NCBI GenBank assembly: GCA_017502165.1
Contig: JAFVVO010000005.1
Coordinates: 10,705 to 74,704 of the forward strand
Source of the DNA: Clostridia bacterium
Lineage (GTDB): Bacteria; Bacillota; Clostridia; Christensenellales; QALW01
Direction: 5' to 3'
Length of the DNA stretch: 64,000 bases
Numbering within the stretch: the stretch's first letter is position 1; every line of letters starts with the position of its first letter. Shown here in pieces: positions 4,225 through 61,275 of this stretch. A program made the position numbers and the translations under genes. The notes under the pieces were generated by a model. It worked only from the letters and a program-made list of their open reading frames with translations. It was not told the origin of the DNA and did not search any database.

Positions 4225-4256
4225 AACTTGTCCTTTCAAAAGATGTATTTTTAGTG

Positions 4257-4285
4257 ATTATAGCATATTTTTGATAACGTTTCAA
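4257..4285 (-). promoter_or_regulatory. sigma-A type promoter of ung (TTGAAA-17 bp-TATAAT)
   Basis: On the minus strand, TTGAAA (4285-4280), a 17-bp spacer and TATAAT (4262-4257) sit about 30 nt upstream of the ung ATG. The -35 box directly abuts the last CTTTAC linker of repeat copy C. Confidence 0.6.
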
Positions 4286-4482
4286 TAGTAAAGTTGCGGT
4301 AAGGATCAGTGAAGTTTGGGCTTGCCAAGTGAAGCAGCGGCGATGTCACTGCAAAGCTTTGTGCTTCGCGCAATGTGAAGTTAAGTGTACCATAGGCGCA
4401 CCGCAGGCACTTCACGATGCGAAGCATCACTTCTCTCACCGAAGGTGTGCTTATCGTGCTGTACGGCACACTTAGTTGAAAA
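4286..4482 (-). repeat. structured intergenic module, GTGAAG/CTTCAC family, copy C (minus orientation)
   Basis: The reverse complement begins ttttcAACTAAGTGTGCC and ends AACTTTACtaTTGAAA. It has GAGAAGT/GTGAAGT linkers in the first half and CTTCAC x3 plus CTTTAC in the second, with short GC-rich hairpins between them (CACCttcGGTG, ATGCttcGCAT, TTGGcaagcCCAA and others). It shares ends, centre (ACACTTAACTTCAC) and linkers with copies at 9627-9809 and 9904-10038. Confidence 0.75.
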
Positions 4483-4587
4483 GGTGTCTAAACAGGGGTA
4501 AAAACGAAGAAAAGGTGTCTGTTTTGGCTCCGTGCATATGTTCGACAAATTGTCATTTGTTTAACTGTTAAATAACCAAACTATATT

Positions 4588-5019
4588 TTATTGCCAACGC
4601 CATTTGGAATAGTACCCATTTATAGAATACCAAACGTACTCTGTTTCTTCACCATTTGTAAAAACTCGTATTGCTCCCATTTGTTCCTCTTCAATCTCTG
4701 TAAAACCTCGTGATTCCATATATTCTACAAAAACCTCACCATTTGGCTGAGCAAGTACCACTTTGGGCGATGCTTGAATTTCAACATACTCCTTGTCTAA
4801 AACAGATATTTGAAAATAACCACTTACAACAGAAAATGGATTTCCTGTATTAAATGTAGCATATGATATAAAACAACTTCCCAAAAGAATAATAATTAGA
4901 ACTGCGGAAACAAGTGTAGTAATTATAATTCTACGACTTCTTTTCTTGCTTTTTTTGATTTCATTATTGGCATACTCGATTGTATCTTTAATAACAGATT
5001 CCGCATCATTCCTGTTCAT
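4588..5019 (-). CDS. hypothetical single-pass membrane protein (partner of the upstream XRE regulator)
   Basis: The ATG at 5019 (MNRNDAES) has GGAGGTG 7 nt upstream. There is one TM helix (IIITTLVSAVLIIILLGSCFI) followed by a ~85-aa extracytoplasmic domain. It overlaps the upstream HTH gene by 14 nt. The region is AT-rich. Confidence 0.6.
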   Translation of the reverse strand: MNRNDAESVIKDTIEYANNEIKKSKKRSRRIIITTLVSAVLIIILLGSCFISYATFNTGNPFSVVSGYFQISVLDKEYVEIQASPKVVLAQPNGEVFVEYMESRGFTEIEEEQMGAIRVFTNGEETEYVWYSINGYYSKWRWQ

Positions 5020-5230
5020 TATCTTCACCTCCAGTTAATAAATCATATAAACTAATTTCCAACACTTTTGAAATGGGAATCAGCATTGATATATCGGGAA
5101 AAGATATGCCACGCTCCCATTTGCTGATAGCTTTATCGGTAATGTTTAATTTATCTGACAGCTCTTTTTGCGACATGCCTTGTTTTTTTCGATTCTCACA
5201 AATGAATTTGCCAGTTTTCTTAGCATCCAT
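5006..5230 (-). CDS. XRE-family helix-turn-helix transcriptional regulator
   Basis: MSQKELSDKLNITDKAISKWERGISFPDISMLIPISKVLEISLYDLL is a canonical Cro/C1 HTH. The start was set at the ATG at 5230 (MDAKKTGKF), which follows GAGAGGAGGG. Confidence 0.8.
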   Translation of the reverse strand: MDAKKTGKFICENRKKQGMSQKELSDKLNITDKAISKWERGISFPDISMLIPISKVLEISLYDLLTGGEDNEQE

Positions 5231-5336
5231 CTTTTCCCTCCTCTCTAACATGATTATATTACAGTTATAAAAGGGAGTAAACCGACTGTTGGTTTACTTC
5301 TTTCATATCAAAGACAAATTCTTATTTATCGGTTAG

Positions 5337-5365
5337 ATTATACCATACAACCACAAACAAATCAA
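5337..5365 (-). promoter_or_regulatory. sigma-A type promoter (TTGATT-17 bp-TGgTATAAT) for the XRE/membrane gene pair
   Basis: On the minus strand, TTGATT (5365-5360), a 17-bp spacer and TATAAT (5342-5337) with an extended -10 TG. The -35 box overlaps the 3' arm of the last hairpin of the module at 5363-5540. Confidence 0.55.
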
Positions 5366-5540
5366 GGCGTAGCCTTGTATTTCATCCGCAACTTGTTGCG
5401 GTATATCATCAGCCCGCAGGGCTGTATATCATCAAGCCGCGAAAAATGCACGCTATCGCGTGATGAGATGCAAGGGCGGTAAGCCGCCCTTGATGATATA
5501 CACGACTGCGTCGTGATGATATGCCAAGCCTGCGGCTTGG
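5363..5540 (-). repeat. structured intergenic module, ATATCATCA/TGATGATAT family
   Basis: Plus-strand layout: CAAGGC-gta-GCCTTG, CCGCAA-cttg-TTGCGG, TATATCATCA, GCCC-gca-GGGC, TATATCATCA, central CGCGA-13nt-TCGCG, TGATGAGAT, CAAGGGCGG-taag-CCGCCCTTG, TGATGATAT, ACGAC-tgc-GTCGT, TGATGATAT, CCAAGCC-tgc-GGCTTGG. The linker orientation flips at the centre. Confidence 0.75.
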
Positions 5541-5549
5541 ATAAACAAA

Positions 5550-5583
5550 AACAGAACATTTGTCGGTAGACAAATGTTCTGTT
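5550..5583 (-). terminator. intrinsic terminator downstream of tRNA-Trp
   Basis: Minus-strand hairpin AACAGAACATTTGTC-tacc-GACAAATGTTCTGTT followed by TTTTGTTT. A-runs on the other side make it potentially bidirectional. Confidence 0.8.
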
Positions 5584-5588
5584 TTTGT

Positions 5589-5663
5589 TGGCAGGGGAGA
5601 CGCGATTCGAACACGCAACCTACGGTTTTGGAGACCGCTACTCTACCGTTGAGCCACTCCCCT
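5589..5663 (-). tRNA. tRNA-Trp (anticodon CCA)
   Basis: The reverse complement is AGGGGAGTGGCTCAACGGTAGAGTAGCGGTCTCCAAAACCGTAGGTTGCGTGTTCGAATCGCGTCTCCCCTGCCA. It has a 7-bp acceptor stem, anticodon stem GCGGT/ACCGT with loop CTCCAAA, T-loop TTCGAAT and an encoded CCA end. Confidence 0.93.
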
Positions 5664-5675
5664 ATTACTTGGACA

Positions 5676-5704
5676 ATTATACAACAAAGTTTATTTTGAG
5701 TCAA
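5676..5704 (-). promoter_or_regulatory. sigma-A type promoter of tRNA-Trp (TTGACT-17 bp-TATAAT)
   Basis: On the minus strand, TTGACT (5704-5699), a 17-bp spacer and TATAAT (5681-5676), 12 nt upstream of the mature tRNA 5' end. Confidence 0.65.
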
Positions 5705-9429: not shown

Positions 9430-9505
9430 GCGGTAGTAACTCAGCTGGTAGAGTGCCACCTTGCCAAGGTGGATGTCGCGAGTTCGAATCTCGTCTATCG
9501 CTCCA
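9430..9505 (+). tRNA. tRNA-Gly (anticodon GCC)
   Basis: GCGGTAGTAACTCAGCTGGTAGAGTGCCACCTTGCCAAGGTGGATGTCGCGAGTTCGAATCTCGTCTATCGCTCCA. Anticodon stem CCACC/GGTGG with loop TTGCCAA, T-loop TTCGAAT and an encoded CCA end. Confidence 0.92.
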
Positions 9506-9507
9506 TC

Positions 9508-9583
9508 GGGTTATTAGCTCAGCTGGCAGAGCACCTGACTCTTAATCAGGGTGTCCGGGGTTCGAACCCCCGATGACCCACCA
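9508..9583 (+). tRNA. tRNA-Lys (anticodon CTT)
   Basis: GGGTTATTAGCTCAGCTGGCAGAGCACCTGACTCTTAATCAGGGTGTCCGGGGTTCGAACCCCCGATGACCCACCA. Anticodon stem CCTGA/TCAGG with loop CTCTTAA and an encoded CCA end. It starts 2 nt after tRNA-Gly. Confidence 0.92.
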
Positions 9584-9590
9584 ACAAAAA

Positions 9591-9626
9591 AGCCTAATTT
9601 GTCTACCAGACAAATTAGGCTTTTTT
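9591..9626 (+). terminator. intrinsic terminator of the tRNA pair
   Basis: AGCCTAATTTGTCT-acc-AGACAAATTAGGCT followed by TTTTTT. Confidence 0.85.
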
Positions 9627-9809
9627 GAACTAAGTGTTCCGCTTGCGCGAAACGTGAAGTTTGCTTCGCAAGTGAAGCGAGGCTACGCCTCGTGAAGTGT
9701 GCCTTAGGCACGATGTGCGGAATACTTAACTTCACTTTGCGCCCTCGGCGCAATACTTCACTTGGGCGCAAGCACCAAACTTCACTGCGGCACAGCCGCA
9801 ACTTCACTA
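9627..9809 (+). repeat. structured intergenic module, GTGAAG/CTTCAC family, copy A
   Basis: GTGAAG at 9654, 9672 and 9692; CTTCAC at 9730, 9756, 9780 and 9802. Hairpins between linkers: TTGCttcGCAA, CGAGGCtacGCCTCG, TGCCttaGGCA, TTGCGCCctcGGCGCAA, TTGGGCgcaaGCaCCAA, TGCGGCacaGCCGCA. A long-range pair AAGTGTTCCGC (9632-9642) / GCGGAATACTT (9717-9727) brackets the first half. Confidence 0.8.
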
Positions 9810-9838
9810 TTGAAATATTTGCAAGTATGTGCTACAAT
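9810..9838 (+). promoter_or_regulatory. consensus sigma-A type promoter (TTGAAA-17 bp-TACAAT) with no conventional gene downstream
   Basis: TTGAAA at 9810-9815, a 17-bp spacer and TACAAT at 9833-9838. It occupies the same position relative to the repeat as the ung promoter does at copy C. Confidence 0.55.
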
Positions 9839-9869
9839 ATTGGTGTAGGTGAGGTGCATATAATGTCCA

Positions 9870-9903
9870 GAACTTTGTCTGTGTAGACAAAGGTTCTTTT
9901 TTT
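9870..9903 (+). terminator. intrinsic terminator
   Basis: GAACTTTGTCT-gtgt-AGACAAAGGTTC (one bulged G) followed by TTTTTTT. Confidence 0.75.
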
Positions 9904-10038
9904 GAACTAAGTGTTCCGCAAGCGGAACGTGAAGTTTGCTTCGCAAGTGAAGCGAGGCTACTCCTCGTGAAGTGCGCTTCGCGCGATAAGATGCGGAACA
10001 CTTAACTTCACTTTGCGCCCTCGGCGCAATACTTCACT
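9904..10038 (+). repeat. structured intergenic module, GTGAAG/CTTCAC family, copy B (shorter, no promoter end)
   Basis: Nearly identical to copy A over GAACTAAGTGTTCCGC...GTGAAGTTTGCTTCGCAAGTGAAGCGAGGCTAC and over CTTAACTTCACTTTGCGCCCTCGGCGCAATACTTCACTT. AAGTGTTCCGC (9909-9919) pairs perfectly with GCGGAACACTT (9993-10003), and alternatively with the local GCGGAAC at 9922-9928. Confidence 0.8.
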
Positions 10039-10081
10039 TTCTGATATTGATATACAACAAAGACGTAATTTTACAAAAAAA

Positions 10082-29629: not shown

Positions 29630-29750
29630 TTAAAAAAGGGCACAGTTACTCTTTTACGAGTAATTGTGCCCAGACGGTCGGCTGAATAAAGGTTCTTTGT
29701 TTCTTTGTGGTGCTCCACGTTTATCCGTCAGTAGCAAAGAACTTACAATA
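29630..29750 (-). ncRNA. ZTP (pfl-motif) riboswitch with expression-platform terminator, upstream of purE
   Basis: The minus strand reads ...ACUGACGGAUAAACGUGGAGCACCAC...(linker)...CAGCCGACCGUCUGGGCAC. Compare the pfl consensus ACUGGCG...CGGGGAGC...CCGCCUGGGCA; the pseudoknot GACGG/CCGUC covaries with it. The terminator GGGCACAaTTACTC-gtaaaa-GAGTAAcTGTGCCC plus UUUUUU overlaps the conserved GGGCA. Confidence 0.8.
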
Positions 29751-54989: not shown

Positions 54990-55250
54990 ATTAAACCTAT
55001 GATTAAGAATAGTAACCTTTAATAAAGCTTTCAGCGAATTGCCGACGGTGTGAGGGCAATAGTGGATTTTCAGGCGAATGGACTTATGAGGGCAGTCGAA
55101 AGCGCAAGCAAGTAGTACCTGACGGCTCGTACCCGTTACTGTACGGTTCATATTTTAGTATGATTAAAGTGGATGTTTTCATCAATTTGGGTGGCACCGC
55201 AGGATTCAGTCCTGTCCCTTATTTACGGGATAGGATTTTTTGTTTTTAGC
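54990..55250 (+). ncRNA. T-box leader, Trp-specific (specifier UGG), with terminator
   Basis: Stem I distal hairpin TTGCC-gacGGTGTGAg-GGCAA, specifier context GAA-TGG-A at 55079-55081, AGTAGTAC box, T-box sequence AATTTGGGTGGCACCGCAGG at 55184-55203, and terminator TCCTGTCCC-ttatttac-GGGATAGGA plus TTTTTT. The promoter TTGACA (54953)-17-TATTAT (54976) is upstream. Confidence 0.85.
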
Positions 55251-60777: not shown

Positions 60778-61275
60778 TCATCCTATAAAAAAACTCGTTC
60801 GTCCATCATCTTTTTCCGTAATAAACGACAGCTTATTTCCATAATACTTTTTACAGGATTTTGCAATAACATTAACGATATTCTCACGTTTTGCATATAA
60901 ATCCACATAACAGTCCGCACACAAAAGTGCGATTTCACAACTACTATTACAAAAGCCATCATAATCTATAATTTCTTCAGGATGTAGGCTCATCCCCTCA
61001 GGAACAGCAAGGATTCTCGCATGTATTATGTAATATGGGAACAAATCGATTTGTTCAGAAAAGATTTTACCTTTATATATAGCAGGTTGAAGGAACTCGC
61101 TATCAGCTCGCTTGATTTTTTCGTTAAAATAAATAATTTCACTATTAGTAACATACCAATCGTATTTATCAATGTTAATATCTTCAAAAATCTTGGCAAA
61201 ATGCTTATCATAATCTTCAAACTGAAATCTTATGCCTATTTTTTTATCCAATTCACGCATTCCTTTCATTAACAT
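60778..61275 (-). CDS. hypothetical protein (AT-rich gene, no signal peptide or TM helix)
   Basis: About 165 aa if started at the ATG at 61275 (MLMKGMRELDKK). The start is uncertain because there is no clear SD. The track's longer N-terminus translates the right inverted-repeat hairpin. I recognise no family with confidence. Confidence 0.5.
   Translation of the reverse strand: MLMKGMRELDKKIGIRFQFEDYDKHFAKIFEDINIDKYDWYVTNSEIIYFNEKIKRADSEFLQPAIYKGKIFSEQIDLFPYYIIHARILAVPEGMSLHPEEIIDYDGFCNSSCEIALLCADCYVDLYAKRENIVNVIAKSCKKYYGNKLSFITEKDDGRTSFFIG

Follow-up and report, generated by a model that had tools for sequence, protein, structure and literature searches.

The DNA analysed here, which we refer to as the window, is a stretch of 64,000 nucleotides (nt) from a Clostridia bacterium (contig JAFVVO010000005.1). 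Within it, the minus strand carries a tRNA-Trp gene, a terminator (T1), a GC-rich module of small hairpins, a promoter and an XRE gene, in that order. The module, at 5363-5540, belongs to a mosaic repeat that recurs in many copies between the genes of gut Oscillospirales and that we name the word-hairpin array element. Its unit is a fixed 8-nt word, TATATCAT, then a GC-rich mini-hairpin that is closed by CA...TG and whose stem is free to vary. About three units make an array, and two arrays face each other across a centre.

Results

Anatomy of the Module in the Window

The tRNA-Trp (CCA) gene lies at 5589..5663 on the minus strand (ARAGORN; Rfam tRNA, 63.9 bits), with a promoter, TTGACT-17-TATAAT, at 5704..5676 on the same strand. 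T1 follows at 5544..5589. It has a 21-bp perfect stem and a 4-nt loop and stands between an A-run and a T-run; because it has the GC-rich hairpin and U-tract of an intrinsic terminator, readable on both strands, it is predicted to be a bidirectional one. At the far end of the module there is an outward sigma-A-type promoter (5337..5365, minus strand), in which the -35 box TTGATT (5365..5360) is separated by a 17-nt spacer from the -10 box TATAAT (5342..5337), itself preceded by TG. The -35 box shares letters with the last hairpin arm, an overlap already pointed out in an earlier note on this DNA (the original prediction). The gene downstream of the promoter encodes an XRE/HTH_3 protein.

The same note had described six perfect mini-hairpins and a central one, separated by a linker on one side and by its reverse complement on the other. 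Indeed, all seven hairpins and every linker copy that it listed are present. The hairpins are perfect and GC-rich; their stems are 5-9 bp long and their loops 3-4 nt. The linkers appear on the left side as TATATCATCA at 5402 and 5425 and as a degenerate TATTTCAT at 5378, and on the right side as TGATGAGAT at 5461 and TGATGATAT at 5491 and 5514. The 8-nt words of the right side, read on the plus strand, are ATGAGATG (5463), ATGATATA (5493) and ATGATATG (5516), the complements of the left words. The CA that ends one word-flank pairs with the TG that opens the next, thereby closing the hairpin between them.

By its loop and wobble polarity, which is described below, the promoter-side array (5363..5432) has its sense on the plus strand. 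It contains the hairpins CAAGGC-GTA-GCCTTG (5363-5377), CCGCAA-CTTG-TTGCGG (5386-5401) and CAGCCC-GCA-GGGCTG (5410-5424), and the words TATTTCAT (5378-5385) and TATATCAT (5402-5409 and 5425-5432). The centre (5433..5448) opens with CAAGCCGC (5433-5440, plus strand) and continues as an A/T-rich spacer. The tRNA-side array has its sense on the minus strand. Its first hairpin, at 5524..5540, reads CCAAGCC-GCA-GGCTTGG on that strand (CCAAGCC-TGC-GGCTTGG on the plus strand). The remainder (5449..5523) holds three hairpins, given here as plus-strand letters: CACGAC-TGC-GTCGTG (5501-5515), CAAGGGCGG-TAAG-CCGCCCTTG (5471-5492) and CACGC-TATC-GCGTG (5449-5462, the central one). The corresponding words on the minus strand are CATATCAT (5516-5523), TATATCAT (5493-5500) and CATCTCAT (5463-5470). 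CAAGCCGC in the centre is an inverted partial copy of the 5' arm and loop of the first hairpin, with 100% agreement to 5532-5539. Only the last and the central hairpin have a T-rich tail; the other internal ones run into TATATCAT or ATGATATA.

Chance does not explain the hairpin density, the word enrichment or the folding of this region. The window contains 95 GC-rich perfect hairpins with a stem of at least 5 bp, so that about 0.26 would be expected per 178 nt, against the 7 observed. With at most one mismatch, TGATGATAT has 36 matches in the window, compared with 10.9 +/- 3.2 in shuffled sequences, and five of the 36 fall within this 120-nt stretch. The folding energies of the two strands are -82.2 and -83.4 kcal/mol (z = -7.2 and -7.1 against shuffles).

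A Multi-Copy Family of Gut and Rumen Clostridia

When one genome per species was scanned for word pairs spaced by 10-20 nt, at least 120 loci of the TATATCAT type, here called class A, were found, where about a dozen are estimated by chance. (Loci other than the window carry L numbers.) Of the 168 word pairs in the listed genome loci, 127 have a perfect hairpin between them, as against 0 of 159 in an equal number of viral-contig matches. Among the matches listed, true modules occur only in Acutalibacteraceae, Oscillospiraceae, Faecousia, Avispirillum, Limivicinus, Fimenecus, Ruminococcus and unnamed Clostridia/Eubacteriales metagenome-assembled genomes (MAGs), and word matches in other phyla lack hairpins. 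The habitats of the module-bearing genomes are gut and rumen. From 120 loci of 8 kb, some of which hold two modules, 114 modules were parsed: 88 are two-sided, 26 are one-sided, and 61 are complete with a terminator-side T-run. The loci were picked by word pattern, and the tRNA and PF05635 frequencies given below are conditional on that choice.

Copies in other species are 76-90% identical to the window module over 150-300 nt, often including the terminator (89.7% in L028, 88.9% in L046), and BLAST matches extend through T1 to 5590/5591 in L028, L046, L066, L088, L100, L101 and L102. Of the coding DNA of the window, only a part that is 73-75% identical aligns to these loci. Where one genome holds two copies, most hairpins are common to both (L015, L029, L101).

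The class A modules follow one plan, to which the window copy conforms exactly. Upstream, a hairpin abuts a T-run in 48 of 56 modules, and a tRNA gene precedes 30 of the 61 complete ones, with about 16 tRNA identities represented. The first array begins ...TTTTTATC, then has a well-conserved first hairpin (CCAAGCC-GCA-GGCTTGG or CCATTGC-GAAA-GCAATGG) and then usually three word-hairpin units, of which the innermost word is typically TATCTCAT. The centre consists of a short A/T-rich spacer and an 11-nt exact reverse complement of the 5' arm and loop of the first hairpin. Two to five inverted units form the second array. At the far end, the last hairpin ends in TTGAT(T), a possible -35 box, in 23 of 60 modules, and TAnnnT stands 16-18 nt further on in 14 of the 60. 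Array size ranges from 2 to 9 units (nine in L026, eight in L042), and the tRNA-side and promoter-side arrays draw on different hairpin repertoires. An invertible switch between the first hairpin and its centre copy was considered and rejected: after 13 regular-expression artefacts had been dropped, all 64 terminator-adjacent modules had the first array in the same orientation. The orientation of one-sided arrays relative to flanking open reading frames (ORFs) is mixed and noisy. One such array, at L004 4323-4376, has three words and four hairpins in sense orientation and lies between a T-box leader terminator and the leuS ribosome-binding site; by its placement, this half-module must lie within the mRNA leader made by read-through.

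The terminators beside modules (5544-5589, 9586-9625 and 9868-9900 in the window, and many elsewhere) belong to a few recurring types, GAAC(A/T)TTTGTCTACC..., CGACAAGTTTCGACTTGTCG and CTCGTTCTTCGGAACGAG. These types are common to unrelated tRNA contexts and species.

The element is thus conserved in many relatives rather than unique to one genome, and no phage, plasmid or Rfam match marks it as a known mobile-element end or att site. At gathering and permissive thresholds alike, Rfam gave no family at gathering score for the module, only the tRNA and chance-level matches (E 0.3-8). No module match was found in phages or plasmids, and no hairpin-bearing match in viral contigs. DnaA boxes, DnaA-trios, parS half-sites, dif, pac sites and mimicry of sigma -10 boxes were compared as motifs and dropped, with no match. 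A literature search on the word, on hairpin arrays and on repetitive extragenic palindromes (REPs) in Clostridia returned no relevant description, and the word-hairpin family is apparently undescribed so far. The TAACTGA heptamer repeats are tandem words without hairpins (PMC4679880).

Independent metagenome and Logan assemblies of the window locus (L259, L260, L262-L265) stop exactly at the 3' end of tRNA-Trp or just ahead of a GTGAAG module (see below) about 284 nt upstream of the UDG gene. Because independent assemblies end at module edges, we take the modules to be assembly-breaking repeats. Empty sites, sought by way of the 260-amino-acid (aa) and UDG proteins, were not recovered, as the contigs end at repeats. 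Synteny by way of the 570-aa neighbour led only to relatives at 32-41% identity, without the tRNA and without the module.

Hairpins Are Conserved for Structure, Words for Sequence

We compared the segments between words across the family. Hairpins form in 320 of 380 segments, 285 of them perfect and 201 of them distinct, whereas 11.6% of shuffled segments pass the same test. Homologous hairpins differ by double changes, for example CAAGGGCGG..CCGCCCTTG as against CAAAGGCGG..CCGCCTTTG. In the first hairpin, the local helix is 98.3% paired, and four of its seven pairs have changed on both sides. The centre covaries with the type of first hairpin: CAAGCCGCAGG goes with CCTGCGGCTTG, CAAGCCGACAG with CTGTCGGCTTG, CATTGCGAAAG with CTTTCGCAATG and CAAGTCGCAGA with TCTGCGACTTG. 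In a mini-alignment, this centre helix is 96.3% paired, with changes on both sides at five of eight pairs, including a position in the first-hairpin loop (CG 19, AU 14); its score was matched by 0 of 500 shuffles. Because related sequences share ancestry, shuffle controls overstate significance.

The words behave differently. The original prediction proposed that opposing linkers pair to give a ladder of four-way junctions, and the minimum-energy folds of both strands do pair them. The nested word pairs of 61 modules do not bear this out: among deviations from consensus, 1 is compensated, 28 give a wobble and 84 are broken, on which ground we reject word-word pairing as a conserved helix. The innermost word is TATCTCAT in 32 of the 61, and the matching ATGAGATA occurs only once. 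Word numbers are unequal between the two sides in 32 of the 61, with 3 + 3 the commonest layout (29 of 61). On this comparative evidence, it is the sequence of the words that is conserved, not their pairing. A C/D-box or k-turn RNA was also rejected: sR14, sR33 and snR76 score 12.9-13.7 bits, against gathering scores of 37-55, and these matches stem from the UGAUGA of the word. Such RNAs pair a C box, RUGAUGA, with a D box, CUGA, but the partner of UGAUGAUAU is a full Watson-Crick complement and no D box.

The Hairpins Have a Strand Polarity

On the TATATCAT strand, triloops are G-N-A closed by C-G in 122 cases and T-N-C in 4 (n = 193), and tetraloops are G-N-N-A in 58 cases and T-N-N-C in none (n = 119), so that class A has 180 C-GNA-G or C-GNNA-G loops against 4 of the complementary type. 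Mismatches on the word strand show the same bias, with 24 G.T against 7 A.C (p = 0.003). Both halves of the module have this polarity: the sense of the tRNA-side array lies on the tRNA strand and that of the promoter-side array on the opposite one. Class A arrays therefore converge on the centre. C-GNA-G is the classic extra-stable mini-hairpin loop of DNA. RNA-level selection usually favours GNRA and UNCG loops; here, purines are not preferred at position 3 of the tetraloops (GNRA 28, GNYA 29) and UNCG loops are absent.

Other Word Classes Share the Grammar

A scan for a centre plus three CTTCAC words, for which about 3 chance matches are estimated, found at least 119 loci of a second class, class B (GTGAAG/CTTCAC), in the same taxa as class A. 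Its order is AACTAAGT, a first hairpin, three GTGAAG-hairpin units, a centre GGGCAAACTTAA and three or four CTTCAC-hairpin units. The centre is complementary to, and covaries with, TTAAGTTTGCCC. On the CTTCAC strand, GNA loops outnumber TNC by 155 to 0 and GNNA loops outnumber TNNC by 65 to 0, and there are 21 G.T against 8 A.C mismatches. Class B arrays diverge from the centre, opposite to class A. A third class, GTGATAT/ATATCAC and variants (class C), also diverges, and TATGGAAT words are found in L001 and L024.

These results uphold the suggestion that the window module reflects a general design rather than one repeat family, and that its context is that of the GTGAAG family: in both large classes a terminator or first hairpin is followed by an array, a centre, an inverted array and often a promoter. 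The original prediction also called the sequences of the two classes unrelated. While the shared grammar stands, this part needs qualification, since the words have a common TCA(C/T) core and may not be entirely unrelated.

The window itself contains class B modules at 4250-4520 (minus strand), 9610-9810 and 9900-10040 (both plus strand). The first two end in TATTGAAA, which provides the -35 box of a TTGAAA-17-TA(T/C)AAT promoter. At 9810-9900, the promoter of one module is followed almost directly by a terminator and then by the truncated module; the stretch resembles an empty slot, as no gene separates the two boundary elements. Some class B modules lie between the stop codon of one gene and the ribosome-binding site of the next.

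Relatives without hairpins follow tRNA-Gly in L034 and tRNA-Arg in L039. In both, a terminator leads into a run of 4-5 direct heptamers (TATTCAT or CTTCACT); the 5' arm of the terminator then recurs as an exact inverted copy, inverted heptamers come next, and a conserved promoter-like TTGGTCAAAAAGCA..TATAT closes the element.

A separate element of about 47 nt, GTAGGGGTTCCC...GGGGTTCCCGTAG, is inserted within modules in L031 and L065 (in the class A first-hairpin loop) and in L294 (in the class B centre). It resembles REP/REPIN sequences in its GTAG ends. GTAGGGG repeats related to it flank short word-hairpin arrays in L001 and L103.

Genes Next to the Modules

The commonest downstream neighbour encodes a PF05635 protein (23S rRNA intervening-sequence protein, a four-helix bundle, Avd-like; Pfam E = 4e-17). 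In 1.66 Mb of module loci, 28 of 38 PF05635 ORFs lie at most 300 nt downstream of a module, where about 2 are estimated by chance. They stand beside class A modules in L016, L020, L035, L056, L088, L091, L105 and L109, and beside class B modules in L274, L277, L280, L282, L285, L294, L296 and L299.

In the window, the neighbour is a two-gene cassette of about 790 bp (4541..5331, minus strand) that encodes the XRE protein of 74 aa and a membrane protein of 143 aa, with its own promoter at 5281..5253. The true XRE start is probably the ATG at 5230, because exactly this 74-aa protein is on record. This exact protein occurs in 37 blocks of the sequence collection, and the ten places that were read represent at least 8 unrelated genomic contexts. 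Besides the window, the cassette was seen in L248-L257, L122 and L121. In L122, a MAG, it is 99% identical to that of the window, next to a module of a different class and with no tRNA upstream, and homology ends just after the -10 box. This distribution marks the cassette as very mobile. It is not part of the repeat, and is inserted just past the promoter of the repeat.

The conserved extent of the cassette runs from GAATTTGTCTTTGATATG to GTTAAACAAAT(T), and its ends are 11-bp inverted repeats, GAATTTGTyTT. With a slash for the boundary, the left junction reads ..GACAAAyTT / GAATTTGTC.. and the right one ..AAACAAATT / CCAATTTGTC.. Both are imperfect palindromes built as ACAAATT-NN-AATTTGT; the half on the cassette side is constant and that on the flank side variable, as site-specific recombination at this sequence would leave them. 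In 7 of 9 contexts the left junction lies 10-20 nt past a -10 hexamer, which in the window is that of the module's own promoter. A perfect 18-bp palindrome in the window, GAACAAATCGATTTGTTC (61040-61055), resembles an unoccupied cassette junction site. The first of the recurring terminator types carries the AATTTGTC / GACAAATT 8-mers of the cassette junctions in reversed order.

More widely, the genes at 1-52 kb of the window are nearly all on the minus strand and include FtsK and UDG, with a ZTP riboswitch at 29661-29745; a T-box lies at 54990-55222. The 1-52 kb part looks like core chromosome. A tRNA-Gly/Lys pair on the plus strand (9430-9583) is an exception to the run of minus-strand genes.

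Discussion

The reading that we favour, tentatively, is that the element is a REP/BIME-like mosaic repeat whose units act as single-stranded hairpins beside a recognised word and punctuate transcription units. A single strand would fold a hairpin, and the adjacent word would be recognised by its sequence. Because the word is constrained in sequence, the hairpins are constrained in structure and the stable loops are strand-polar, we infer recognition of a single-stranded nucleic acid. The two halves have opposite polarity, and between classes it turns round with respect to terminator and promoter; therefore no single transcript carries the whole module in the favoured sense. This opposite polarity, together with a DNA-type loop spectrum (loop statistics and textbook hairpin stability), points to single-stranded DNA as the likelier level. 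A protein may recognise or propagate the units in this form, as RAYT (REP-associated tyrosine) transposases do with REP sequences. Because the element has a bidirectional terminator and many copies also have an outward promoter, it could form a boundary between transcription units: it would supply terminator and promoter and so punctuate the transcription units of its host. It would also mark recombination-prone junctions that hold small mobile cassettes.

Several observations weigh against this reading. Inspection by eye of the module flanks, which are T-rich, found no consistent target-site duplication; TTGTTT is repeated in the window, L020, L046 and L102 and not in most others. No clean empty site was seen in the loci of relatives, so that the module itself is at most putatively mobile. 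A tblastn search of about 1 Mb of module-bearing loci plus the window, rather than whole genomes, with an approximate IS200 TnpA query found no IS200-like Y1 transposase. Unlike REPs, the element lacks GTAG, and its stems vary between units. Only about one in three to one in four modules has the -35/-10 pair at its far end. Whole subfamilies, and the hairpins of particular ranks, are conserved between species, a pattern as compatible with a functional RNA or DNA element as with a selfish one. Transcription of some modules is certain. Finally, template-switch mutation, rather than selection, could maintain the perfect hairpins and the centre copy.

A variant that we hold to be improbable makes the element one of punctuation and docking. 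A dedicated protein would read the word beside single-stranded GNA-loop hairpins. The element would organise the boundaries between terminators and promoters, and small mobile cassettes, such as the XRE pair with its palindromic junctions, would be exchanged there, an integron-like logic spread over many loci. The reader could be the PF05635 four-helix-bundle proteins, whose genes so often lie just past a module, or a single-strand recombinase.

Of the rival explanations, the one that survives best is a structured RNA, although we consider it unlikely. The module would be transcribed by read-through of the tRNA terminator or as part of an untranslated region, with hairpins joined by single-stranded UAUAUCAU linkers and a long-range helix between first hairpin and centre closing the first array; it might act as a sponge or platform for proteins, stabilise or insulate RNA, or be a second-chance terminator. 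Covarying stems and a covarying centre helix with conserved linkers are the usual signature of such RNAs, and G.U-type wobbles are tolerated on the word strand. The last hairpin with AUUUGUUU and the central hairpin with CAUUUUU score as weak terminators, while the bidirectional T1 hints at transcription from the module side as well. There is a precedent in the small RNAs (sRNAs) between dual terminators of stable-RNA operons (PMC8144298). Yet no one transcript has the loops and wobbles of both halves in their favoured sense, classes B and C turn the polarity round with respect to terminator and promoter, and neither GNRA nor UNCG loops are preferred. Nor is there a convincing promoter on the other strand or an Rfam match, and there are probably many copies per genome. 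We retain some weight for an RNA role because some modules are certainly transcribed, both in the leuS leader of L004 and in class B modules between a stop codon and a ribosome-binding site.

It is quite unlikely that the element is a largely neutral by-product, in which minisatellite-like arrays grow in dispensable spacer, template switching perfects quasi-palindromes and homologous recombination spreads the copies. Template switching does make and repair hairpins; unit number varies from 2 to 9, the same hairpin types occur at different ranks, copies within a genome are near-identical and contigs break at modules. Such a process would not account for a loop polarity of 180 to 4 in class A and 220 to 0 in class B, or for a word strictly conserved across genera. 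It is also at odds with position-specific hairpin identity, with the differing repertoires of the arrays and with how consistently terminators, tRNA genes and PF05635 genes accompany the modules.

That the words are arrayed binding sites on duplex DNA, as in iterons, operators or centromere-like sites, is distinctly improbable. A protein would read the word in either direction and the GC palindromes would be mere spacers. Words that are conserved in sequence in both orientations rather than for pairing, their symmetrical arrangement round a centre beside promoters, and the existence of hairpin-less heptamer arrays are all consistent with this. WATCACW heptads are bound by the omega repressor of pSM19035, and the TCA(C/T) core of the word classes resembles them. 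But duplex spacers need neither compensatory palindromes nor a strand-polar loop, and word-to-word spacing, at 21-31 bp, has no helical phasing.

Least probable is the ladder, in RNA or extruded DNA, with opposing words paired into four-way junctions and the hairpins as side arms: paired words in the minimum-energy folds, an inverted repeat between the halves (I1) of 37 nt and 81% complementarity, the frequent 3 + 3 layout and the plain long stem that hairpin-less relatives would give speak for it, whereas the broken nested pairs, the near absence of ATGAGATA opposite TATCTCAT, the unequal word numbers, the existence of one-sided arrays, a covarying centre helix that is topologically incompatible with nested word pairing barring a pseudoknot, and stems of 5-9 bp that are too short for stable cruciforms in duplex DNA speak against it.

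The findings matter in several ways. In many uncultured Clostridia of gut and rumen, at least two large repeat families (TATATCAT and GTGAAG) and some minor ones follow one unusual grammar. Their modules affect how tRNA and other transcription units end, provide promoters, fragment metagenome assemblies and lie at junctions where strains swap genes. Extreme loop polarity, free stems and a covarying centre point to a single-strand-specific recognition system in gut bacteria. To our knowledge, PF05635 proteins have long been without a function outside diversity-generating retroelements (DGRs), and their link with the modules is a lead on what they do.

Among known systems, a CRISPR array, with its identical repeats of at least 23 nt, unique spacers that are not palindromic and a single direct orientation, can be discarded, as the repeat here is only 8-12 nt long, the "spacers" are palindromes of 13-23 nt and the orientation flips at the centre. 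Work by Guo and colleagues in 2011 reportedly found a hairpin with a GRNA loop at the DGR target site, where the accessory protein Avd is said to belong to the PF05635 superfamily. The element resembles this in its GC-rich hairpins with a G..A loop and one working orientation, and in its link to a PF05635 four-helix bundle; it differs in that no reverse transcriptase or template/variable repeats were seen at the modules, that the hairpins form arrays with a word, and that the PF05635 link is statistical only. The dual-terminator sRNAs (PMC8144298) and the "hairpin clusters" proposed as terminators (PMC8355165) likewise place structured sequence just past the first terminator of a highly transcribed stable-RNA gene. 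They are, however, single-copy conserved sRNAs or generic clusters, without word-hairpin grammar, inverted halves or a multi-copy family.

Integron attC sites have conserved boxes round a palindrome that is conserved in structure, a strand-specific single-stranded function and a promoter that serves mobile cassettes, all of which recall the element. In contrast, the units here have no R''/L''-L'/R' boxes (RYYYAAC...GTTRRRY) and no extrahelical bases, the hairpins are 13-23 nt long with no ORF between them, and the XRE cassette uses ACAAATT-NN-AATTTGT. No integrase was noted at the loci, and no genome-wide integrase search was made. Like the Correia elements and NIMEs of Neisseria and the pneumococcal BOX elements, the element is modular and intergenic, with variable internal modules, promoters or terminators and stable stem-loops. 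In those elements, however, the modules are conserved in sequence and there is no word-hairpin alternation, GNA-loop polarity or centre-complement rule. The element also recalls miniature inverted-repeat transposable elements: its halves are inverted arrays (I1) with similar end hairpins (ATC-CAAGsC...), and it thus has terminal inverted repeats.

The closest parallel is with the REP/BIME/REPIN sequences, proteobacterial repetitive extragenic palindromes that are mobilised by RAYT Y1 transposases. The conserved motif differs, being an 8-nt word, TATATCAT(CA), in class A or CTTCAC in class B, instead of GT(A/G)G at the foot of the palindrome. Whereas the REP palindrome is conserved, the stems here vary, with 201 distinct ones among 320 and all different within one array. 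In the word-hairpin element, moreover, 2-9 units run in one direction before the orientation flips, the first hairpin is copied at the centre, a terminator and in many cases a promoter belong to the element, and the hosts are Clostridia. What the two have in common is the general design: short GC-rich extragenic palindromes beside a short conserved motif, in many copies, probably many per genome here as well, with strand-polar units opposed in mosaic clusters at the ends of transcription units, and with a presumed action as single-stranded hairpins.

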